From a virus (taxonomy: Duplodnaviria > Caudoviricetes), in IMG/VR virus record IMGVR_UViG_3300035670_000313, positions 1 through 50,081 of that record: a stretch of 50,081 nt of DNA; one strand, written 5' to 3'. Below, in pieces: positions 29,718-45,774 of the stretch (the stretch's first letter is position 1; the number at the start of each line of letters is the position of its first letter). Position numbers and translations under genes: made by a program. The notes under the pieces were generated by a model. That model ran no database searches. It saw only the letters and a list, made by a program, of their open reading frames with translations, and had not been told where the DNA came from.

Positions 29718-30035
29718 TTATTCGTCTTCGTTATCTTCGTAAAAGCGGGCAGCTTCCTCTCTGACTGCCTCGGCATCGAACTGCATATGAGCGTGACAGA
29801 ACTGGCAGGGAACCGGCTCTAGGCAGGGCCTATCGCAGTGCTCACACCAGAAGTGTTTATCCTCTGTGCCAGCGTCTACAACAGGATTTCCACAACCACA
29901 GACCATTAGCACAGACAGGGTCATGCCCGTCTCTTTGTCTGTCATTGTGTAGCCTAGATACTCGTGCTCTGGCTCGGAAAATGCAGGCGGTGGAACTTCT
30001 AGCTTAAAAAGCCTAGCTATCCACCGCCGAATCAT
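29718..30035 (-). CDS. Cys-rich (Zn-binding) hypothetical protein
   Basis: CGCG, CEHC, C..CQFC. Confidence 0.6.
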   Translation of the reverse strand: MIRRWIARLFKLEVPPPAFSEPEHEYLGYTMTDKETGMTLSVLMVCGCGNPVVDAGTEDKHFWCEHCDRPCLEPVPCQFCHAHMQFDAEAVREEAARFYEDNEDE

Positions 30036-30766
30036 ATCGCCCTTGTTACTGTTTTGTTAATTGAGATTGGTCCACGTTGCCACTTGCCACAATCTTGGCA
30101 TTGGAATCTGTGGTAAGTGCCCGACGCACTTCGTGCCACGCCTCTGCGCTGTAGGTGAGCAGAGCCACAGACCAAGCATCCCTCTTCGAGCCCATCATGC
30201 AGTGCTCGGTTTGGGTGGCCAGGAATCCAAGGCTTCAGAATCTCATAGAGGTCAATCAGTAGGTTGACATCCTGAATCTGGTACTTCTTCATCTCGGCCC
30301 AGGCCTTATTGTCGCCAGCCATACACTTCTTCCAGAGGTCGAAGCCTGAGTGTTGCACCTTGGCTCCGACACCCAGCGTCTGTGCCACGTAGTCCAGCTT
30401 GTTGCTTGGGAACTTGAACTGTGACTTCACGGCTAGCATCAAGTCCATCTCCTTGTAGGGTGATGGTGGCTTCATGCCCGCCTGCAAAAGCTCACGCTTC
30501 AAGTGCTTGGAGTCAAATGCCTTTGAGTTCCAGCCGACTAGTACATCGGCCTCGTCCAGCAGGCGGTGAACTTCCTGCAGCATGGCCTCTTTACCATCGT
30601 GGTGCACAGACTTGAAGATTACCTTCTTCTCTCCGTACCAGCGAGCGCCGAAGCACAGCATCTCGGTTGACTCCTCAATCTGGTTGATGGCAATGTTCTG
30701 CTTGAACAGGCCCCAGACGTAGGCCAGGTTTGGCGTTGTTTCAATGTCAAGAAAGAGTATCTTCAT
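30032..30766 (-). CDS. DEDD/RNase H-fold 3'-5' exonuclease with C-terminal Zn ribbon
   Basis: LFLDIET, WNSKAFD, YQIQDV; CLVC/CQDC. Confidence 0.85.
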   Translation of the reverse strand: MKILFLDIETTPNLAYVWGLFKQNIAINQIEESTEMLCFGARWYGEKKVIFKSVHHDGKEAMLQEVHRLLDEADVLVGWNSKAFDSKHLKRELLQAGMKPPSPYKEMDLMLAVKSQFKFPSNKLDYVAQTLGVGAKVQHSGFDLWKKCMAGDNKAWAEMKKYQIQDVNLLIDLYEILKPWIPGHPNRALHDGLEEGCLVCGSAHLQRRGVARSASGTYHRFQCQDCGKWQRGPISINKTVTRAI

Positions 30767-31431
30767 TAATCTACCTTCAATCCATTGACCCAAGTTCTGC
30801 CAGCGTCACCGCCCCAAGCGTCCCACGCAACGCGTCCTGGGCTTGGGTAGCCCTTCTCGCCCGCATTGAAACCAGTGGCCTGCTTGTCCACTGCATGGCG
30901 AGCAAAGTAAGCCCGCATCTTTACTACTACATCTCGGCCTACAGAGCCACCAGCAGCGAGCTGTGAAGCTCGACGGCGACCAGTCGCAGTAAAGCCATCG
31001 CCAGCCTTGCCTTCTTCAATCCACTTGATTGCTCGCTTAGCTGCACTCTGGACTCCAGCTGGAACCTTGTAGCTTGCAGCTGCTTCACGCAGTGACTCTC
31101 TTGCGTTTACAAGCCCGGGAGGAATCATTGCAAATCGACATGCGCCATCCTCTTCGATGTCCTGGTCAATCGCACTGCACTCAATCCCATCCTCGGTCAT
31201 CTGGTGGAACACACAGTTACCGCACTTTACACCAATCTCAAGGTTTGGGTTGTCAGCGGGTCCATCGTAGCCAGCATTTACTGCGCTGCCTTCGGACTGG
31301 AACTTGCCGAACTCTTGTACAACGCCGAGTAGAGCATCAACCACTGCCTTCTCGTCGCCATCAATCTGTGCGTAAAGGTCCTCGCTGAACTCTTTTACTC
31401 TAATAGGTAGTTTCTTTTTGCTCGCTGGCAT
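30766..31431 (-). CDS. Two-domain protein: HiPIP-like 4-Cys domain plus conserved phage domain (AWDAWGG)
   Basis: CGNCVF...C...IEEDGACRF; KMRAYFARH...PSPGRVAWDAWGGDAG. Confidence 0.6.
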   Translation of the reverse strand: MPASKKKLPIRVKEFSEDLYAQIDGDEKAVVDALLGVVQEFGKFQSEGSAVNAGYDGPADNPNLEIGVKCGNCVFHQMTEDGIECSAIDQDIEEDGACRFAMIPPGLVNARESLREAAASYKVPAGVQSAAKRAIKWIEEGKAGDGFTATGRRRASQLAAGGSVGRDVVVKMRAYFARHAVDKQATGFNAGEKGYPSPGRVAWDAWGGDAGRTWVNGLKVD

Positions 31432-31874: not shown

Positions 31875-32034
31875 TTAACTTCTCCTCCTTCATCTTTACT
31901 ATCTGAGTCATCTGGTAGCAAGCCACCGACAACGGGTACCTGAAGCCCATTTCGTACTTCATGGCATGAAATAGAACTGCCTCTTGGTCGAACTTTACGT
32001 TATCGAACTTTGCGTTTCTACTGTAGTTATCCAT
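31852..32034 (-). CDS. Hypothetical protein
   Basis: 60 aa, coupled to neighbours, RBS GGAGG. Confidence 0.5.
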   Translation of the reverse strand: MDNYSRNAKFDNVKFDQEAVLFHAMKYEMGFRYPLSVACYQMTQIVKMKEEKLNDDNAKP

Positions 32035-34238
32035 TACGCCAATACCTCCAAGTATGTCTTACGATTGTCCACAACGGCATGTACCCTGGCTTGCGAACTA
32101 AGCGCTTCCACCATATCATCGAACTCCCTCTTCCTCTTATTATTGAACTTGCGGTAAGCCTCCTCGTAACGGACTCGGCCACCTCGGTCAACCACGAAGG
32201 CTTCGAGCTGGTCAACATCCCTCTGCCACTCGGACGCTGAGATTGCACTTGCCATGCGGACTAGGTTCTCGAACCACTCTTCCGAGTAGTGGATTGCAGT
32301 CAGCATGTGCTGTAGCTTGACTTCGTCAGACTTATCAGCCATCGCTAGCAAGATTGCACACTTCCAGACAGACAATGCAAGACGCTGGCGAGAAGGCTCG
32401 ATAGACTCCTTCTCTCTGTGCGACTCGGCATAGTTACCCATCTCCCACTTGTACTGATTGAAGCGCTCTAGCGAAGCTTGGCTGAGTCGGACTGGCCTTG
32501 GGTTGGGCTGGCCCTTCTTCTGCCAGTAAGTCACAGCATCAAACAACTTGCGAACCATCTCGTCGAGCATGGTGTCCTTGACAACCACTTCGTACTCGTC
32601 AGCCTGCTGGATGTCCTCCAACTCTCGGCTTCGCTCTGGTGCATCTGCGGTCACGTAGATAAAACGTGCCAAGAATCCAGAGCGGAAGTACTCAGTTGTC
32701 AGAACATCGGCAACCTTACTGGTGATACCCATCAAGTACATGATGAAGTTGGTCTCAGCACGTTCGGTCTGGCGCTTGTCCTTGGATGAACGAATCACAA
32801 CCGGGACACTACCGTCGTAAAGCTCGGTGTAACGCTCAGCAGCTGAGGCCATGTAGGTCTTGTTCATAAAGTCCTTGAACATACCCTGAACCTCATCGCG
32901 GTGCAGCAAGCTGGTCTTCTTGTCGCGGTCAGCAAGGATTGCAGTCACACCTTCAGGCGTAGCGTCCGAACCGATGTCAATCTGGTAGCCACCAAACTTC
33001 TCGTAGGCACGAATCACACGCAACATCAGGTTACGGCTGGTCGACTTACGAGTTAGCGTGGTCTCACCTAGCACCATGAACCACAGGTTCAAGCCCATCT
33101 TGCCGTAGCGTGGCACAGCGTAGCCCCAGTCGGAAAAGACTGCGGATAGCACAGTGAATGCCGAAGCAATCTGGTAGCTCAGTGCACCGTCGGTCTTGGA
33201 CCTAGCCCACTTTACATAGCTGTCGATGAAGGTTGGCTCAAGTGCCACGACCTCACGCTCATCCTCGGTAAGGAATGACACCTCAACCTTGTCGAATCGT
33301 GCAACAGGTGCGTCCTCAGTAATTGGCTCTGGCACATAGTTAGCTTCACCCTGCTCTGTGATGTAGCTCTGGTGCGCCCGCTGAATCTCACGCCACAAGT
33401 CACCGTCAGCATCTGAACGCTTTGGGCGGTCAGGGCTGTGGTACTTGTTGCACTTAGCGTGGCGAGCAACAGTGAAGACTTCCTCTGGGGTCAAGCCCTC
33501 GCGGAATAGCTCCATCTCCAGCTTCCAGAGTAGGCGTGACAGGTCAGCGTTGAACGCTGGCTGCTCCATGTACAAGCCGACAATCTGTGGGTTGTGAGAT
33601 AGCTTCTCAAGCACCTCAAGAATTGGTGGGAACCCCTCAGGCATCGGGAGGTCGGCCATCTCTCGGATAGGCTCGACCTCCACGTCGCCGTAGACTGAAT
33701 TGATGTCATCAAAGCTGTAAACCTGGCCGGTGCTGGTGGCTTCGATGGACCAAGACTCTTCGCGCTTTAGGTTGCGGGTGTTTGGCAGGCGAAGCAACTT
33801 AGTTGTGTTCCAGCCAGACTTGTCGCAGCCCTGGTGAGCATGTGCGTAGGCAATCTTCTTCGCTAGCAAGGCAGCTTCAAGCGGCTCGACCTCTTGGTCA
33901 AGCATCCAGTAGGTGTGCCATCTCTTGTCTGAAGTTTGCACAGAGATGCTAGGCTCAACTAGGAAGTTCTCTGGCTGGCAAGCATCAGCGTCGGCGTAAA
34001 TTACGTGAACGGTCTTGGCGTTCTCTTTGATGCGACGCGGTGCGTTAAATAGGATTGGGGAAAAGTACACGTCCTCCATGGCGTGAGCAGTTGCAAAGGC
34101 AACCATCTCATGCTTCTGCTCTGGGTACTCGTAGAACTTCTGCTCGGTTAGGTCGCCAGTGGAAGCACTGCGTACGACAAGCGTAGCGATGCCTGTTGCG
34201 TCGCCATAAATCGCTGTCAAAAAGTCTGCTGTTTTCAT
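32034..34238 (-). CDS. Primase (RepB/AEP-like) fused to helicase-like domain (DUF3987-like)
   Basis: YADAD, QTS..RWHTYW, LLRLP.T.N; GETTLTRKST and LLHRDE. Confidence 0.8.
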   Translation of the reverse strand: MKTADFLTAIYGDATGIATLVVRSASTGDLTEQKFYEYPEQKHEMVAFATAHAMEDVYFSPILFNAPRRIKENAKTVHVIYADADACQPENFLVEPSISVQTSDKRWHTYWMLDQEVEPLEAALLAKKIAYAHAHQGCDKSGWNTTKLLRLPNTRNLKREESWSIEATSTGQVYSFDDINSVYGDVEVEPIREMADLPMPEGFPPILEVLEKLSHNPQIVGLYMEQPAFNADLSRLLWKLEMELFREGLTPEEVFTVARHAKCNKYHSPDRPKRSDADGDLWREIQRAHQSYITEQGEANYVPEPITEDAPVARFDKVEVSFLTEDEREVVALEPTFIDSYVKWARSKTDGALSYQIASAFTVLSAVFSDWGYAVPRYGKMGLNLWFMVLGETTLTRKSTSRNLMLRVIRAYEKFGGYQIDIGSDATPEGVTAILADRDKKTSLLHRDEVQGMFKDFMNKTYMASAAERYTELYDGSVPVVIRSSKDKRQTERAETNFIMYLMGITSKVADVLTTEYFRSGFLARFIYVTADAPERSRELEDIQQADEYEVVVKDTMLDEMVRKLFDAVTYWQKKGQPNPRPVRLSQASLERFNQYKWEMGNYAESHREKESIEPSRQRLALSVWKCAILLAMADKSDEVKLQHMLTAIHYSEEWFENLVRMASAISASEWQRDVDQLEAFVVDRGGRVRYEEAYRKFNNKRKREFDDMVEALSSQARVHAVVDNRKTYLEVLA

Positions 34239-34265
34239 TGCTCCTCCATTCTGGTTGTCCTCCTA

Positions 34266-34300
34266 TAAACTTAAGTAAGCCCTCCCGTTACTTAAGTTTA
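34266..34300. repeat. Perfect 13-bp inverted repeat upstream of primase
   Basis: TAAACTTAAGTAA-gccctcccg-TTACTTAAGTTTA. Confidence 0.85.
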
Positions 34301-34323
34301 ATCGCATAAGCTTAATTATGCAG

Positions 34324-34402
34324 TGCCCTAGCTGAGAGTCGAACTCAGCAGTCCATAGAGATGAAACGGAGGAGGGAGGAGATGGACCACTCCTGTTAGG
34401 GC
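34324..34402 (-). ncRNA. tRNA-like RNA 1 with anti-SD loop in place of anticodon loop
   Basis: GCCCTAA..CTAGGGC-A acceptor, CTGAG-TTCGACT-CTCAG T-arm, GTCCAT/ATGGAC stem closing a 25-nt pyrimidine loop. Confidence 0.7.
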
Positions 34403-34406
34403 TTGT

Positions 34407-34478
34407 GATGGTAGACGAGCAGAAGACGTAATCGAAGTTTTTGCTAGTGAAGTAGGTTAGCAGAACCCGCCTACCATC
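34407..34478 (-). ncRNA. Structured RNA between two tRNA-like modules
   Basis: 14-bp closing stem GATGGTAGGCGGGT/GCTCGTCTACCATC, inner hairpin TGCTA/TAGCA. Confidence 0.55.
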
Positions 34479-34479
34479 G

Positions 34480-34530
34480 TCCCTAGCCGAGAGTCGAACT
34501 CGGAGCGCCATTGCCATACCGTATCTAGGG
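34480..34530 (-). ncRNA. tRNA-like RNA 2 (acceptor + T-arm only)
   Basis: CCCTAG..CTAGGG-A and CCGAG-TTCGACT-CTCGG. Confidence 0.7.
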
Positions 34531-34532
34531 TT

Positions 34533-34560
34533 GTGCGTTTAAGCAGTCGCACCCCTGCCC
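34533..34560 (-). other. H-type pseudoknot in SSB 3' region
   Basis: GGGCAG/CTGCTT and GTGCG/CGCAC interleaved. Confidence 0.55.
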
Positions 34561-34572
34561 TTGTTTAGGAGA

Positions 34573-35037
34573 TTACCAAGGCTTCTCATCTACTGCGGTT
34601 GCGCCCAAGGATGCAAGAACATCCTCACCGCTAGTGGCCTTATCGAAGCCACTCACCTCGTTGCGAGGAGCGCCATTGATGTCCGAGCCAACCTTGACTC
34701 GAACTCCGATACCCTTGCCCAAGATATCGGCGGTAGCTGGAACCTTGAAGTTGCCAGCCTTTACGTCGTAGCCAAGCGACTTGAAGAAAGCAGCTGCCTT
34801 CCATGCGTCGTTGCCTGCGTACAGTGGGACGTAGCTGAAGACTCGGCGGTTCTCGTACTGCCCCTCAGAGATGCGGAACTGTACATTGAAACGCGGCTTG
34901 CCCTCGTTTGGTCCGGAGCGAACAGTCTCTTCCTTGATGTCGTAGACAGTCGCGTTGTAGGAGCCAGCAGGAATCGGGTCTAGTGAACCGGTCTTGGACT
35001 CAAGCGCATCTGCGCTAAATGAAATGGTGTAACTCAT
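34573..35037 (-). CDS. Single-stranded DNA-binding protein (DUF669-like)
   Basis: PIPAGSYNATV, GQYENRRVF, C-terminal KPW; follows Sak4-like ATPase. Confidence 0.75.
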   Translation of the reverse strand: MSYTISFSADALESKTGSLDPIPAGSYNATVYDIKEETVRSGPNEGKPRFNVQFRISEGQYENRRVFSYVPLYAGNDAWKAAAFFKSLGYDVKAGNFKVPATADILGKGIGVRVKVGSDINGAPRNEVSGFDKATSGEDVLASLGATAVDEKPW

Positions 35038-35798
35038 TATTTACCTCCCTTGATTAGTGAATAGATTTTCTTCAGGCTTGGCTCGGTAATCACCGGAGGC
35101 AAGTTGAAGCGGTTTTTGGTAACCAGTCTGTCAGATGACTCTACGACTAGCACACGCTGGGCTGAGCCGTCTTCCTTCTTCTGAGCGGTTAGGTAACCAA
35201 TGATGTCAGGTATTCCTGGCAAGTCCTTCTTGGAACCACCTGGGATGTTTGGAACGGTCTTCACCGCACCGGTGTTCTCATCCTTCTGGTCCTCGGCGTG
35301 AGTCAGAATGATGGAAGTGAATGGAGCAGAGTGCAAGGCTCGGACTGTATCGTTAGCCCAAATCTTCAGGTCGCCCCACTTGCCGAACTTGTTACCCTTG
35401 TTCTCTGGCTTCTCGCCAAAGAACTTCTCGGCCCTGTCCATCGCAACACCGAAGGTGTCGATGATAACAGTCTTGTACTTGTGCTTGACGTTGATTAGGT
35501 CAGTGATTACCCTATCCAACTTCTCGTGAGAGTCGACGTTGATTACGTCGACTTCCTTGAAGTCGCGGGCAATAGCTGATGCTCCACCCTCGACATCGAT
35601 TAGTAGCACAGGTGATAGCTCTGCAAGCTCAGCTGCTGAAGCAGCTAGCCAAGTCTTGCCTCGGCCTGCATCACCGTAGATAAGAATCGTCTTCGGTGCG
35701 TTGAGTGCCTCTGCCTTGTGAATAAACTTGGCAAATGATAGCTCTGGGAAGTCGCTTCCCTTGGTGGCAGCTGGTGCTGCGGTTGACGTTTCGCCCAT
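35037..35798 (-). CDS. Sak4-like / AAA_24 ATPase (recombinase)
   Basis: GDAGRGKT Walker A, VIIDT, ILTHA. Confidence 0.8.
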   Translation of the reverse strand: MGETSTAAPAATKGSDFPELSFAKFIHKAEALNAPKTILIYGDAGRGKTWLAASAAELAELSPVLLIDVEGGASAIARDFKEVDVINVDSHEKLDRVITDLINVKHKYKTVIIDTFGVAMDRAEKFFGEKPENKGNKFGKWGDLKIWANDTVRALHSAPFTSIILTHAEDQKDENTGAVKTVPNIPGGSKKDLPGIPDIIGYLTAQKKEDGSAQRVLVVESSDRLVTKNRFNLPPVITEPSLKKIYSLIKGGK

Positions 35799-35819
35799 AT
35801 TATTTCCTCCTATTTGTTA

Positions 35820-36527
35820 TTATAGCAGCCCTGACACTGAGCAGTTGAAGCACTCAGGGTGGCCTGCATATGACTCTGGATGAACTCCATTTTGTAGCTC
35901 CTCCCATAATACCACGAGCCTGTTCCACAATGCAACTGCAATAGACTCGTCGTACGCGAATGTGTATTCTAGCACATCCGAATCGCTGGTGCCGTCTCTG
36001 TTGATGAACACAAGCGAAATGTTATCAATTTGTAATCCAGACTGAGCCACGCCCCAAGCATAGAGTTGTGTCTGTCCGATGTACTTTTGCATCGTGTAGG
36101 TTGTGCCTGCATCTTGCTTGGTGCCATCGACCCATGCCTGAATCTTCTTGGTCTTTGCCCTGGTCGAAGTCTTCCAGTCTACCAAGTGGTTGATAGCTGG
36201 AAGCACAAGGTCGGGCTTGCTTGACACTGTGCCGTAGCCATCAATCTCTCCAAGCACAATCTTCTGCTCGACTCTTGCATCGACAAGTTCCTCTGCATCG
36301 GAGTGCTCAATAGCAGCTTCGATGGCTGAGTGAATCGCGGTTCCAACCTTGCCACCTAGCCAGTACTTGCTTGGCTCTGGCTCAACACCTGCCAAGGCCA
36401 GTGCCAAGTGCTTGGTGCATGGGTTAGATATCTGAGACGCTCCGACCTTCTTCTGGCCGTCACGCTCAGTCTTAGTGTTCAATAAAGAAATCGCTAAGTT
36501 CTTCAACCTCGAACCATTCGTAACCAT
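35820..36527 (-). CDS. Cas4-like PD-(D/E)xK exonuclease
   Basis: GASQ...C, GTAIH, PDL...DWKT, QLYA, C-terminal CFNC. Confidence 0.8.
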   Translation of the reverse strand: MVTNGSRLKNLAISLLNTKTERDGQKKVGASQISNPCTKHLALALAGVEPEPSKYWLGGKVGTAIHSAIEAAIEHSDAEELVDARVEQKIVLGEIDGYGTVSSKPDLVLPAINHLVDWKTSTRAKTKKIQAWVDGTKQDAGTTYTMQKYIGQTQLYAWGVAQSGLQIDNISLVFINRDGTSDSDVLEYTFAYDESIAVALWNRLVVLWEELQNGVHPESYAGHPECFNCSVSGLL

Positions 36528-37020: not shown

Positions 37021-37203
37021 TTAGTAATCCTCGTCGTAGTCGTAGTGCTTCGGTCTAACTTGTGAAGTCAGCGGTTGTGGTTTGAACTCTCTGGTGAACA
37101 CCATGAACAGTGGTAGCACAGTGGTCAGCAGGAATACGGCACCAACATAAGCTCCGAATCCAAGTATCAGTGCAACAATAAAGTAATGTATTGGCTCAGG
37201 CAT
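37021..37203 (-). CDS. Small membrane protein
   Basis: Hydrophobic N-terminal segment; RBS AAGGAG. Confidence 0.55.
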   Translation of the reverse strand: MPEPIHYFIVALILGFGAYVGAVFLLTTVLPLFMVFTREFKPQPLTSQVRPKHYDYDEDY

Positions 37204-38569
37204 CCTTCTCCTTCAAACTTGCTCGCAAGTCCAGCTCTCGCTGGAGTAGCGTATCTAATTGTCCTTCATCATAAGTGTCACGTGCCACGATGTCATACAC
37301 CTGCACCAATTGCTTCTGCCCACGCCTGCGAATGCGGTCAAGCACCTGCTGGTTTAGGATGTTGCTATCGCTGTGGCTCAGCCACACAACTGTGCGACAT
37401 GAATCCTGCAAACCATCCACGCCCTCGGCAATCGCTGGGATTACCGCCACGATGAATCGCTTGGAACCGTTGATGAACTCCTGCTTGGCCTGCTCACGCT
37501 GTGGCTGTGTTGCCGTACCACTCCACTCGAAAGCAGAACCCTCGCCATACTTGGCATTGAGTCGGTCGGTCACAATCTTAGCGTACTTCTGGCTATCTGT
37601 CAAGAGCAACATCTTCTCATCGGGGTTGTCCTCGATAATCTCCAGTAGCGCTTGGTACTTGGTTGACACTGCGTCATCCGCAAAGTAAACCTCGCCAGTC
37701 TCGGTCAGGCTTGGCACAGCTAGGGTCATCTGGCGCAACCGAATGCGGGCTGCAATTGGAACCTCTGCAACCAGTGGGTTCTCCTGCAACCAGACAACCA
37801 AGTCGCGCTGGAACTTCTCGTAAACCTTACGCTGGCTTGGGACTAGGTCAACATACCTAGTCTCCTGCACCACGTCAATGTTATAGTCTGGCTCTAGGCG
37901 GACATAGCATGGAAGGGTATTTGCGAATGCACCTGGTACCTTCTCGCCCAGAATCTCGACGTTTGAGAATGGGTTGTAAGCGGTGTTTGCCCAACGCTCT
38001 ACCCACTTCCAGAATGACTTTGGCACAATCTTGTCATCAGGCCAAAGGAATCTAGTCACTGCCCAGAATCCCTCGAATCGGTTGCCGAATGGCGTACCCG
38101 ACATGGACAACTTGAAGCCTGCCTTCAAAGTCTTGGCAACCTTGAATCCCTTGCTTGCTCGGTTCTGCATGAAGTGGCACTCGTCAACCAACACGATGTC
38201 TGGCACAACCTTGGCCCACTCCTTGGTGCGGAAGTACTCACGACCGACAAAGTACCAACCCTCTTTGCCCTCGGTAATGCCACGCATTGCGTCGCGCCCC
38301 TTGGTGCTAGAGTCAATCTTGAACAAGCCGTTCGCGGTGTACTCGGTCTGTCTCTGAATCGTATCGTGCCATCCCCAGTAGGTGTTTAGCGGTGCGATGA
38401 TTAGCACAGTCTTAGCCTTGAGTCTGAGTGCAACCTCGGTTGCCATCAGGGTCTTGCCAGTACCCATTAGGCTAGCATTCAATGCAGCCTTGGTGGGCTC
38501 TGCGACAATCTTCTGAATCGCAACCTCCTGCTTTGCATCAGGGGTCAGCCTTGGTAGCTTCGCTCTCAT
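37196..38569 (-). CDS. SF2 (SNF2-like) helicase
   Basis: MGTGKT, DECH, SGTP, EGVDGLQ, RIRRRGQ; RBS AGGAGG before ATG 38569. Confidence 0.9.
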   Translation of the reverse strand: MRAKLPRLTPDAKQEVAIQKIVAEPTKAALNASLMGTGKTLMATEVALRLKAKTVLIIAPLNTYWGWHDTIQRQTEYTANGLFKIDSSTKGRDAMRGITEGKEGWYFVGREYFRTKEWAKVVPDIVLVDECHFMQNRASKGFKVAKTLKAGFKLSMSGTPFGNRFEGFWAVTRFLWPDDKIVPKSFWKWVERWANTAYNPFSNVEILGEKVPGAFANTLPCYVRLEPDYNIDVVQETRYVDLVPSQRKVYEKFQRDLVVWLQENPLVAEVPIAARIRLRQMTLAVPSLTETGEVYFADDAVSTKYQALLEIIEDNPDEKMLLLTDSQKYAKIVTDRLNAKYGEGSAFEWSGTATQPQREQAKQEFINGSKRFIVAVIPAIAEGVDGLQDSCRTVVWLSHSDSNILNQQVLDRIRRRGQKQLVQVYDIVARDTYDEGQLDTLLQRELDLRASLKEKDA

Positions 38570-38692
38570 TATCCTCCTTGTGACATTCACAAATACAATC
38601 AACTGTGCTGGCAACTGCGTAGCAATTGCGGTGGTCATCCATCTTGCACCAACTGAAGATGGTGTACTGCTTGGGTGGTGGTGGCTCGGTGC

Positions 38693-41441: not shown

Positions 41442-41822
41442 CTACTCAACATTTGCTACGCTCTTTTCTAGGTTTAGGGTTAGTTTGCGGAATGGTCTGC
41501 GGGTGGTGTCCTGTTCCTCCCACTCGACTACAATGCCGTTCTGGGCTAGGGTCGCAAGGACTCGCTTGCCCGAGTCGTTGAGTTCTCCGTCGTCCTTAGT
41601 CAGGTTGCCATGGTTGAACATCCAATCGCTGTATTCATAGCTGTTGCCCGATACAACATTGCGGTTACCCTGCCCGCCGAAACTCCAGATTACTGGCACC
41701 TCGTCCGCTAGGTCTAGGTTCGCACAACTCTGGCAACATGCCGATACATTGCGCTTGGCTACAATCCCCTGTCGGCGTAGCTGTTTGAATGCGTTGTCTA
41801 ATCTCTTCTCTAGTGTTGTCAT
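41442..41822 (-). CDS. Hypothetical protein with CCxxC motif
   Basis: AFKQLRRQGIVA...ACCQSC; own promoter and RBS AGGAGG. Confidence 0.65.
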   Translation of the reverse strand: MTTLEKRLDNAFKQLRRQGIVAKRNVSACCQSCANLDLADEVPVIWSFGGQGNRNVVSGNSYEYSDWMFNHGNLTKDDGELNDSGKRVLATLAQNGIVVEWEEQDTTRRPFRKLTLNLEKSVANVE

Positions 41823-41850
41823 AATTTCCTCCTTCAGAACCAACATGATG

Positions 41851-42451: not shown

Positions 42452-42657
42452 TAGTCCTCCTCTATAACCCTAAACTCAAATCCATTATCGCCTTCTTGTT
42501 TGGCTCTCTCAAACTCTTCCTCGCTCTCAAAGTAGTAGAACACTCTGCTGTCGTCCTCCTCGCTTAGCGGGTCGAATGGTTCATCAATCGCAACCTTGGT
42601 GGCAATCGGTGTATCGCCGTCATGCCATTGAATCAGAACATCAACTAGGTAACTCAC
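42451..42657 (-). CDS. Hypothetical acidic protein
   Basis: Coupled ORF, probable GTG start. Confidence 0.5.
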   Translation of the reverse strand: MSYLVDVLIQWHDGDTPIATKVAIDEPFDPLSEEDDSRVFYYFESEEEFERAKQEGDNGFEFRVIEED

Positions 42658-43016
42658 TAGTAAACCTCCGCCCAAACATAGCCATTCTCGCTTCGGTAAA
42701 AGTCATGGCGCAAGTTCTTGTCCCATGTCTTCTCCCAATCCACCTCTAGGTAAGTTTGAATGGTGGACTCGGTGTCATAGTTCTCAAAGTAGAACTTAGC
42801 AAAGTCCGCGGTTGAATCGTGTTGCCCGTAGTAGCTGTCGGTCTCCCACTCAATCCACTTTTCTAGGTTCTCGCGGATTACCTCTAGTCGCTCTGGCTCT
42901 GTGCTGTAATTGCCAACCAACCCGACATAGTCGGCTAGTCGGTCGAAATCCTCATGCTCTAGCCCTAGCTCTTCGGCTACTAGCTCTAGCTCTTCTGCGG
43001 TTGCGTGAATAAACAT
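42657..43016 (-). CDS. ArdA-like acidic anti-restriction (DNA mimic) candidate
   Basis: YYGQHDS.ADFA...Y.EVDWEK.....D.Y...GYVW; very acidic; own promoter. Confidence 0.55.
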   Translation of the reverse strand: MFIHATAEELELVAEELGLEHEDFDRLADYVGLVGNYSTEPERLEVIRENLEKWIEWETDSYYGQHDSTADFAKFYFENYDTESTIQTYLEVDWEKTWDKNLRHDFYRSENGYVWAEVY

Positions 43017-45626: not shown

Positions 45627-45662
45627 TTGTTCCTCCTGTTTAGGTTACGGCGCTCGCCGTAG

Positions 45663-45708
45663 TGACTAGGGGAGGAATCGAACCTCCCCTAAGGCTCCAG
45701 CCCTAGTC
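45663..45708 (-). ncRNA. tRNA-like RNA 3 (acceptor + T-arm only)
   Basis: GACTAGG/CCTAGTC-A and GGAGG-TTCGATT-CCTCC, 14-nt linker. Confidence 0.7.
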
Positions 45709-45774
45709 TGCCGAGTAATCGCCCGATGCGATTAGTTCCGCTAGCAAGTCTTCAATGTCTAGATAGTCTTCCAT
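45703..45774 (-). CDS. 23-aa acidic peptide
   Basis: MEDYLDIEDLLAELIASGDYSAD; coupled by TAATG to upstream ORF. Confidence 0.4.
   Translation of the reverse strand: MEDYLDIEDLLAELIASGDYSAD

Follow-up and report, generated by a model that had tools for sequence, protein, structure and literature searches.

A covarying tRNA-like element with an anti-Shine-Dalgarno-like loop, a pseudoknot and a hairpin RNA between the SSB-like and primase genes of a Caudoviricetes virus

[quoted passage not shown] Positions 1 to 50,081 of that record, the whole stretch analysed, are called the window. The gap contains a chain of predicted structured RNAs that includes a 79-nucleotide (nt) tRNA-like element (TLE), and several described systems resemble parts of it. 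tRNA-shaped cut marks inside long transcripts are known from tRNA punctuation in animal mitochondria and from the mascRNA of MALAT1; these are eukaryotic or organellar, and we know of none with a loop that pairs to ribosome-binding sites. The tRNA-like domain of transfer-messenger RNA (tmRNA) comprises an acceptor stem and a T arm, the D stem being reduced to a GG-containing strand able to contact the T loop. Unlike tmRNA, the TLE has no reading frame, tag peptide or G3-U70 pair, and ARAGORN identified no tmRNA in 103 loci. C/U-rich loops pairing with GGAG-type ribosome-binding sites are present in Gram-positive bacteria in RsaE/RoxS and in the hairpins of RNAIII, whereas the TLE carries its loop on a tRNA-shaped scaffold encoded inside the operon that it may control. 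The T4 gene 32 knot is a compact H-type pseudoknot whose first loop is very short and whose A-rich loop measures about 6 nt. The knot of the window shares this build and is likewise adjacent to a phage SSB-like gene, but it lies 3' of that gene and not in a 5' leader, the SSB family is DUF669, and binding would be by analogy with T4, where the knot is bound by the phage SSB (PMC10690425).

Two further systems share the tRNA-like fold. The t-elements of plant mitochondria are cut by RNase P and RNase Z, which creates mRNA ends and releases a stable small RNA (Forner et al. 2007; PMC1920247). As in the t-elements of that account, the fold of the TLE is tRNA-like but non-canonical, its T arm is conserved and it lies in an mRNA flank. 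It differs from them in belonging to a phage replication operon, in forming one deep sequence family at one genomic position, in being preceded by a pseudoknot and in carrying a conserved anti-Shine-Dalgarno-like loop; its processing is a prediction. The YrlA group of bacterial and phage Y RNAs are also non-coding RNAs with a tRNA-like domain, the Mycobacterium smegmatis form having a 7-bp acceptor stem, being cut by RNase P in vitro and carrying CCA in vivo (Chen et al. 2014; PMC4201824). As described there, YrlA keeps D and T arms and a Ro60-binding module and its gene lies beside that of Ro60. Membership of the TLE in YrlA fails because the element has no D arm and no Rfam match, and because no TROVE (Ro60) gene was matched in the complete 50,081-bp genome, control genomes being matched by the same search. 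A catalogue of 8,495 candidate structured RNAs from IMG/VR includes unnamed covarying tRNA-like candidates, and its main text contains no occurrence of "primase" or "Shine-Dalgarno" (PMC10690425). In the literature neither this locus nor a tRNA-like RNA carrying an anti-Shine-Dalgarno loop was found to be described; the supplementary tables of PMC10690425 may list such motifs.

The tRNA-like element and its pseudoknot

The gap (34239-34572, minus strand) comprises 334 nt. The chain begins 12 nt past the DUF669 stop codon and its order is pseudoknot, mini tRNA-like unit, a 72-nt RNA (HP72), TLE and two hairpins. These elements had been proposed in a sequence-only reading of the window, with CACAA preceding both tRNA-like units, and all of them, CACAA included, were located in the minus-strand sequence. 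The principal features are:

34323-34402, minus strand: TLE, 79 nt (34402-34324), with its A-C tail; model R1 and covariation
34368-34381, minus strand: pyrimidine tract CUCCUCCCUCCUCC in the hairpin loop of the TLE, anti-Shine-Dalgarno-like, complementary to GGAGGAG-type sites
34241-34265, minus strand: primase leader with purine box UAGGAGGA (34265-34258) and Shine-Dalgarno sequence GGAGGAG (34247-34241), the ATG being at 34238
34533-34560, minus strand: compact H-type pseudoknot; read from the sequence, strict scan and covariation
34407-34478, minus strand: HP72, three-way-junction hairpin RNA of 72 nt; fold z-score, covariation and model R2
34573-35037, minus strand: DUF669 gene (SSB-like); Pfam DUF669, E 2.1e-4
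32034-34238, minus strand: primase/helicase gene; Pfam DUF3987 domain, E 9.8e-22

Relatives were collected from IMG/VR with the primase and DUF669 as queries, giving 102 loci (L numbers below) with primase identities of 56-95%. The covariance model of the TLE, R1, was built from 25 hand-picked members. All 71 loci with a placeable upstream gene have in the gap one or more perfect 5-bp stems capped by a UUCRANY loop. The first of these stem-loops is located about 53-102 nt past the stop codon (about 230 nt in L003 and L004, which have extra modules upstream), and its stem sequences are highly diverse. The first T-arm-like element of the gap is never called by ARAGORN in the related loci; in many of them the program identified genes for tRNA-Asn(GTT), tRNA-Trp(CCA) and tRNA-Thr(TGT) in the same gap. 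The widely shared portion of the window's gap, as delimited by nhmmer, is the TLE.

The TLE consists of an acceptor stem, a GG linker that replaces the D arm, a long hairpin, then the T arm and finally an A-C tail. In the window it scores 65.8 bits with R1 (E 1.1e-12) and its minimum free energy (MFE) has a z-score of -3.13. Exactly one strong match (31-74.5 bits) was identified in 73 of 75 sources, the exceptions being L023 and L103, both cut off by contig ends. Covariation was measured on 62 distinct sequences, in an alignment fitted to the model, which favours structure: 88.7% of cells are paired (63.1% in shuffles), the covariation value is 0.721 against 0.230 in shuffles (reached in 0 of 500) and 0.08-0.13 in slid-partner controls, and 16 of the 17 modelled pairs are changed on both sides. 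Since the slid controls are low and the stem sequences diverse, we argue that the fit of the alignment to the model is probably not the cause of this covariation. The same double changes speak against decayed ordinary tRNA genes, a case that would have counted against the original proposal.

The T arm resembles that of canonical tRNAs. Its 5-bp stem is paired in all cells, the loop-closing G-C (position of G53-C61) is invariant (62/62), and the loop, of the UUCRANY type, is UUCGAUU in 48 of 62 members. The acceptor stem has 6-7 bp. The linker contains GG in 62 of 62 members and UGG in 56; the hairpin has a stem of 5-8 bp, and the region inside its five modelled pairs is 16-29 nt long and varies in sequence. 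In 61 of 62 members the tail reads A-C, seven of the 62 encode ACCA, and the adjoining letters are A at N-1 (52/62) and G at N+1 (51/62). The true tRNAs of this phage group also end in N73-C74 followed by other letters, a 3' grammar common to both. The view of the two units as tRNA mimics is thus borne out by their minihelix of acceptor stem and T arm, their canonical T loop and this tail. The D arm and 7-nt anticodon loop of a canonical tRNA are absent, and in the window and eight IMG/VR loci the TLE stays below the gathering score of the Rfam tRNA model (RF00005, 29 bits), while true tRNAs in the same eight loci score 57.7-67.8 bits.

No known family was found for the elements of the chain. 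ARAGORN called neither tRNA nor tmRNA at 34239-34572. With Rfam 15, searched at E up to 10, the stretch 34100-34700 yielded nothing beyond two snoRNA-like matches attributable to chance; no tRNA and no riboswitch pseudoknot (preQ1-I or other) was matched. At gathering scores the window and nine loci contained true tRNAs and no other family, and none of 50,697 phage records matched the gap at the nucleotide level.

In the first set the TLE is always located between the DUF669 and primase genes, a slot that it shares with tRNA-Asn, tRNA-Trp and tRNA-Thr genes in relatives; cultured actinophages keep this gene order, the slot being occupied by odd tRNAs or by a mini tRNA-like unit. A scan of IMG/VR with a TLE-derived pattern and without protein anchors gave 97 stretches, of which 80 were listed, 76 of them as new loci; roughly half of its contigs were already in the first set, judging by contig names. 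Of its 55 R1 matches 53 were examined, L120 (cut by a contig end) and a weak second match in L175 being left out. DUF669 and/or primase homologs adjoin 52 of the 53 in the expected order; the exception is L154 (28.9 bits). In a collection of genomes from 185,579 species the same pattern gave 23 stretches against a rough chance expectation of about 25, none above 30 bits with R1, and this pattern therefore provides neither a host clue nor a TLE in bacterial genomes.

The second element of wide distribution is the pseudoknot. In its general topology S1 (4-6 bp) is separated by 1-2 nt from S2 (5-7 bp), after which come 0-1 nt, S1', the A-rich loop and S2'; in the window S1 is GGGCAG/CUGCUU, followed by 2 nt, S2 (GUGCG), 1 nt, the A-rich loop and CGCAC. 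A strict scan reported this topology in 57 of 64 distinct upstream regions, in two sequence types. The scan misplaced the knot in L002, L005, L013, L026, L074 and L091, where the usual one lies just downstream, and gave none in seven rows, among them L003, L004 and L081, which have HP72 before the TLE and the knot further up. In 18 hand-chosen type-2 sequences S1 and S2 are fully paired, with two of four and four of seven pairs covarying. Taken jointly, the stems of knot and TLE have a covariation of 0.516 against 0.185 (0 of 500 shuffles reach the value). The knot is located 1-5 nt upstream of the TLE or, in the clade of the window, upstream of the mini unit. In Arthrobacter phage Amigo (L104) a knot of the same type 2 precedes a non-canonical tRNA.

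Some observations concern the flanks of the knot. A motif A(A/C)(U/G)GGGC abuts its 5' side in most loci (e.g. L076 2853-2877; window 34558-34563), and often there is a small hairpin overlapping the stop codon of DUF669. Pairing of this GGGC with the acceptor stem was rejected for lack of covariation. In Amigo, at 2040-2235, the feature annotated as tRNA-Gly(ccc) is a 78-nt "tRNA-?" with a 6-nt anticodon loop according to ARAGORN; after it comes a tRNA-Val of 84 nt that has a long extra arm.

Taken together, the alignments show, on the evidence of covariation, three conserved structured RNA families (knot, TLE and HP72) at a fixed operon position that also houses tRNA genes. The widely conserved unit is the 79-nt TLE with its anti-Shine-Dalgarno-like loop, together with the knot upstream.

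Pairing of the loop with the primase leader

The loops of the TLE average 83% pyrimidine, and CUCC is present in 59 and CUCCUU in 48 of 62 distinct members. In the MFE fold of the window's gap the GGAGGAG of the leader pairs with CUCCUCC of the loop. For each TLE (n=53), matches of the loop to the 45 nt preceding the primase start of its locus were set against matches to the corresponding leaders of other loci. The longest Watson-Crick match averages 8.19 nt with the own leader and 6.94 nt across loci, and the duplex energies are -16.6 and -14.3 kcal/mol respectively; 0 of 5000 permutations reach either own-locus value. The effect persists with 35, 30 or 18 cluster representatives (p <=0.0003); for the 18, with less than 65% TLE identity, match length was reached in 0 of 20000 and the energy has p = 0.0003. 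Covarying partners of loop and leader are CUUCUUCUCC with GGAGAAGAAG, UUUAUCUCUC with GAGAGAUAAA, CGUUUUUCUCC with GGAGAAAAACG and CCUCCUCCCUG with CAGGGAGGAGG, each pair type occurring in 1-6 loci. Some of the extended pairs hold across 245-641 nt of intervening tRNA genes.

The comparison of own and foreign leaders thus shows that loop and primase leader co-vary across loci, in a manner suggestive of pairing. The primase leader gives the best duplex among about eight leaders per locus in 30 of 54 loci, some of the comparison frames perhaps not being genes. The purine box starts within a few nt of the 3' end of the last tRNA or TLE, and its start is the predicted 5' end of a processed primase message.

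Clade-specific insertion and genomic setting

The remaining members of the chain, and a unit elsewhere in the window, are:

34479-34530, minus strand: mini tRNA-like unit with a 6-bp acceptor stem, a GG-containing linker, a T arm and an A-C tail
34266-34322, minus strand: two hairpins separating the TLE from the primase ribosome-binding site; fold z -4.07
45662-45750 (core 45664-45708), minus strand: third mini tRNA-like unit, in another early intergenic gap

Alignment with the closest relatives places the mini unit and HP72 in an insertion of about 137 nt between knot and TLE. It was identified only in the window, L003, L004 and L081 and is absent from L002, whose primase is 95% identical.

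In the window the closing stem of HP72 has 14 pairs, three of them G-U. Its MFE z-score is -5.29, with 0 of 200 shuffles folding as well, and the window's copy scores 79.7 bits with model R2. The invariant core contains a T-loop-like UUCGAUU. In eight sequences the closing stem (11-12 bp) is fully paired, comes in four unrelated sequences and has 10 of 12 pairs changed on both sides. A search with the HP72 core identified the arrangement knot-TLE-HP72-primase in L236, L238 and L240, and R2 applied to 162 sources adds L124 (37.5 bits) and perhaps L055 (24.6 bits, E 0.021), HP72 being directly 3' of the TLE in both. For HP72 and the linkers of the mini unit, complements in the window are only 9-11 nt long, taken as chance level. 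The same core search gave the arrangement HP72-TLE upstream of a zinc-ribbon-like gene in L237 (911-1075) and L239 (10784-10862, minus strand, and downstream), outside the SSB-primase context; the small product has a CxxC zinc-ribbon look by eye, and one contig of this pair is 91.6 kb long.

The T arm of the mini unit is CCGAG-UUCGACU-CUCGG, followed by A-C. As had been claimed, it differs from that of the TLE by one compensatory pair, and the 21-nt T-arm/acceptor motif common to both occurs exactly twice in the window, against 0.00 expected. The mini unit scores only 23.4 bits with R1 (E 0.02), its fold is not above shuffles (MFE z -1.19), and it was identified only in the four carriers of the insertion, where its stems are identical and thus give no covariation support. 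The expected covariance across relatives was accordingly found for TLE, knot and HP72 and not for this unit.

The third mini unit combines an acceptor stem of 7 bp, a linker containing CUGG, a T arm that reads GGAGG-UUCGAUU-CCUCC and an A-C tail, and ARAGORN reports it as "tRNA-???" with a 2-nt anticodon. BLAST of this region, located near 45.7 kb, against five related records gave no significant match, and no extra mini units emerged from a strict minihelix scan that covered two complete relatives and the first 40 kb of one that is 85% complete. In Clavibacter phage CN1A (L201) the SSB-primase gap contains two unannotated elements at 1885-1975, a hairpin with UUCGACU in its loop and a 47-nt mini tRNA-like unit with an encoded ACCA end (R1 18.9 bits). 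L004 has an extra insertion of about 185 nt between TLE and primase (about 2800-2985, alignment A4 columns 311-495), which appears to contain a further unit that looks like an acceptor stem with a T arm. Of the two hairpins before the primase, the first is absent from L003, L004 and L081; the second, whose loop holds GGGAGGG, is kept in L002, L003 and L081.

The virus record is complete (50,081 bp, direct terminal repeats, GC 51%), with structural genes on the plus strand and early/replication genes on the minus strand. Genes with AAA_24 and PD-(D/E)XK Pfam matches are located further upstream of DUF669. By primase the best cultured relative is Amigo (37.8% amino-acid identity), the nearest ones being actinophages in which the homolog is annotated as DNA primase. 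The Amigo gene syntenic with DUF669 is annotated as single-strand DNA-binding protein, and the annotated order exonuclease, Sak4-like, SSB, tRNAs and primase is that of the window. The host is probably an actinobacterium, since the nearest cultured relatives by primase are actinophages with the same gene order. No terminator-like site was identified on the minus strand of 33900-35200, which makes co-transcription across the gap plausible. The fold of the whole gap has -110 kcal/mol against -95.2 +/- 5.9 in shuffles (z -2.49).

Pfam gave no tRNA-related enzyme among 10 further early genes. Other early-region matches, all on the minus strand, are a SNF2-type helicase (37196-38638), DUF6891 (41442-41846), an RNase_H-fold exonuclease (30032-30793) and a weak ArdA antirestriction match below the curated cut-off (42657-43016).

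Proposed processing and rival explanations

Under the proposal the operon RNA would be cut at this point by RNase P and 3' tRNA enzymes of the host, and the TLE loop would mask ribosome-binding sites; the chances that it is correct are considered about even. The TLE would be a tRNA derivative that has lost the D arm and keeps the features read by tRNA-processing enzymes, namely 6-7 bp of acceptor stem that stack on the 5-bp T stem, the canonical T loop, a GG able to dock on that loop, and A73-C74. Host RNase P would cut its 5' end, and RNase Z or trimming plus CCA addition would act at the 3' end, splitting the operon RNA between the SSB-like and primase genes. The pseudoknot, with a 3' tail of 1-5 nt, would shield the upstream message from 3' exonucleases. 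The loop would pair with the leader of the primase message, which is rich in purines, and with its ribosome-binding site, perhaps also with those of other early genes, setting the translation or stability of its targets. In the clade of the window the same cuts would release the inserted mini unit and HP72 as small RNAs. Cleavage by RNase P and a 3' tRNA enzyme, 3' protection by the knot and regulation by masking are the parts of this scheme that we infer from anatomy and comparison.

Several points weigh against this proposal. Recognition of the TLE by the enzymes is predicted from its anatomy because ARAGORN and the Rfam tRNA model both reject it, and in 41 of 54 cells the acceptor stem lacks its seventh pair. 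Protection by the knot is proposed from general properties of exonucleases. L056 lacks the CUCC motif. In the window the match of loop and leader is only 7 nt, the level of a generic Shine-Dalgarno sequence, and the other complements of its loop are generic sites of 7-9 nt. Pyrimidine loops set against purine-rich leaders inflate the matches, and relatedness is only partly controlled. Complements of 10-12 nt are also present at ribosome-binding sites of other early/replication genes, so the primase is not the unique target. The distance from TLE to primase start ranges over 13-1016 nt, and in many loci tRNAs intervene, which makes simple pairing within one RNA unlikely there. As for transcripts, three runs filed as RNA consist of contigs: the one metatranscriptome covers 35709-36081 only, and the other two are marked as probably DNA.

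The sequence-only reading saw in the mimics host-processed punctuation that cuts small RNAs out of the early transcript. Taken by itself this explanation makes them only RNase P/Z cut sites that separate cistrons and release small RNAs, the loop having no pairing role. The hairpin-less mini units at the same junction in the window and in CN1A speak for it, as do the true tRNAs that fill the slot in relatives and the plant mitochondrial precedent described in PMC1920247. It is nonetheless held to be unlikely: 59 of 62 members keep the loop motif, and the loop follows the primase leader of its own locus, which would be superfluous for a bare cut site, and the excised 72-nt RNA is present in few lineages. 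What stands of the idea is the presence of tRNA mimics in a tRNA slot flanking an HP72 with a covarying stem. The release of small RNAs is at most a side use because the insertion of mini unit and HP72 is limited to the window and three close contigs, and cutting of the operon message with action on ribosome-binding sites fits the conservation better. A stronger form of loop action, in which the TLE is a tRNA-shaped copy of the anti-Shine-Dalgarno tail, excised and stable, that binds the ribosome-binding sites of early messages, the primase first, as a self-excising translational timer, is regarded as rather doubtful. In a bolder variant the TLE would be bait for host nucleases that clip the 16S tail.

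A stable TLE might also act as a decoy or sponge, displaying a copy of the 16S tail that, as a timing switch, soaks up the ribosome-binding sites of many messages or else diverts a host factor or toxin attacking the tail. Among 43 distinct loops, 26 share 8-10 nt with the 16S 3'-tail motif, and complements of 10-12 nt lie at the ribosome-binding sites of several early genes, both in favour of a decoy. A mycobacterial MazF toxin removes the anti-Shine-Dalgarno tail of 16S, which has a CACCU site 11 nt from its 3' end (PMC12274833). The loop flanks, however, vary and follow the phage leaders, not a fixed rRNA sequence, and a decoy is judged quite improbable. A working non-canonical tRNA or aminoacylated adaptor acting on the ribosome is very improbable. 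The kept acceptor stem, T arm, A73 and C74 and the occasional ACCA would suit it, and the odd tRNA of Amigo, in the same position, reaches the Rfam tRNA cut-off (37.6 bits), though with an anticodon loop of 6 nt by ARAGORN; the TLE itself lacks a D arm, has in its variable hairpin region no defined 7-nt anticodon loop and falls below that cut-off. Hardly any probability is given to an element without an RNA role, be it a DNA-level site (origin or primase loading), a decayed tRNA gene or a short protein gene. The site adjoins the primase gene and has a polypurine/polypyrimidine tract, and an 84-codon open frame runs through 34263-34517, yet compensatory changes keep RNA-type helices in which G-U is accepted, with a canonical T loop. 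The frame has no Pfam match and was rejected as a gene, being broken or absent in close relatives (no frame of at least 40 codons in L002; other frames in L003, L004 and L081).

Two further DNA-level candidates were rejected. An attP site or integration remnant would have the complete unit upstream and the partial one downstream if it followed integration into a tRNA gene, the reverse of what is present. A promoter in the TLE is represented by one site against 0.6 expected, its second hexamer lying in a hairpin-1 segment absent from L003, L004 and L081.

The proposal of cutting and masking, if true, would add a bacterial virus to the few cases in which tRNA mimics serve as RNA-processing marks, and would describe a tRNA scaffold refitted with a regulatory loop that reads ribosome-binding sites. 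Under the timer reading, early messages would be shut down or protected as infection proceeds. Knot, TLE and HP72 are three uncatalogued covarying families and defined targets for structural and RNA biologists, and Amigo, a cultured phage with the same knot and an odd tRNA at the site, offers an entry point at the bench. The fixed place of these elements, with the recombination/SSB genes on one side and the primase gene on the other, points to a means by which such phages may set the ratio of their replication proteins from one transcript.

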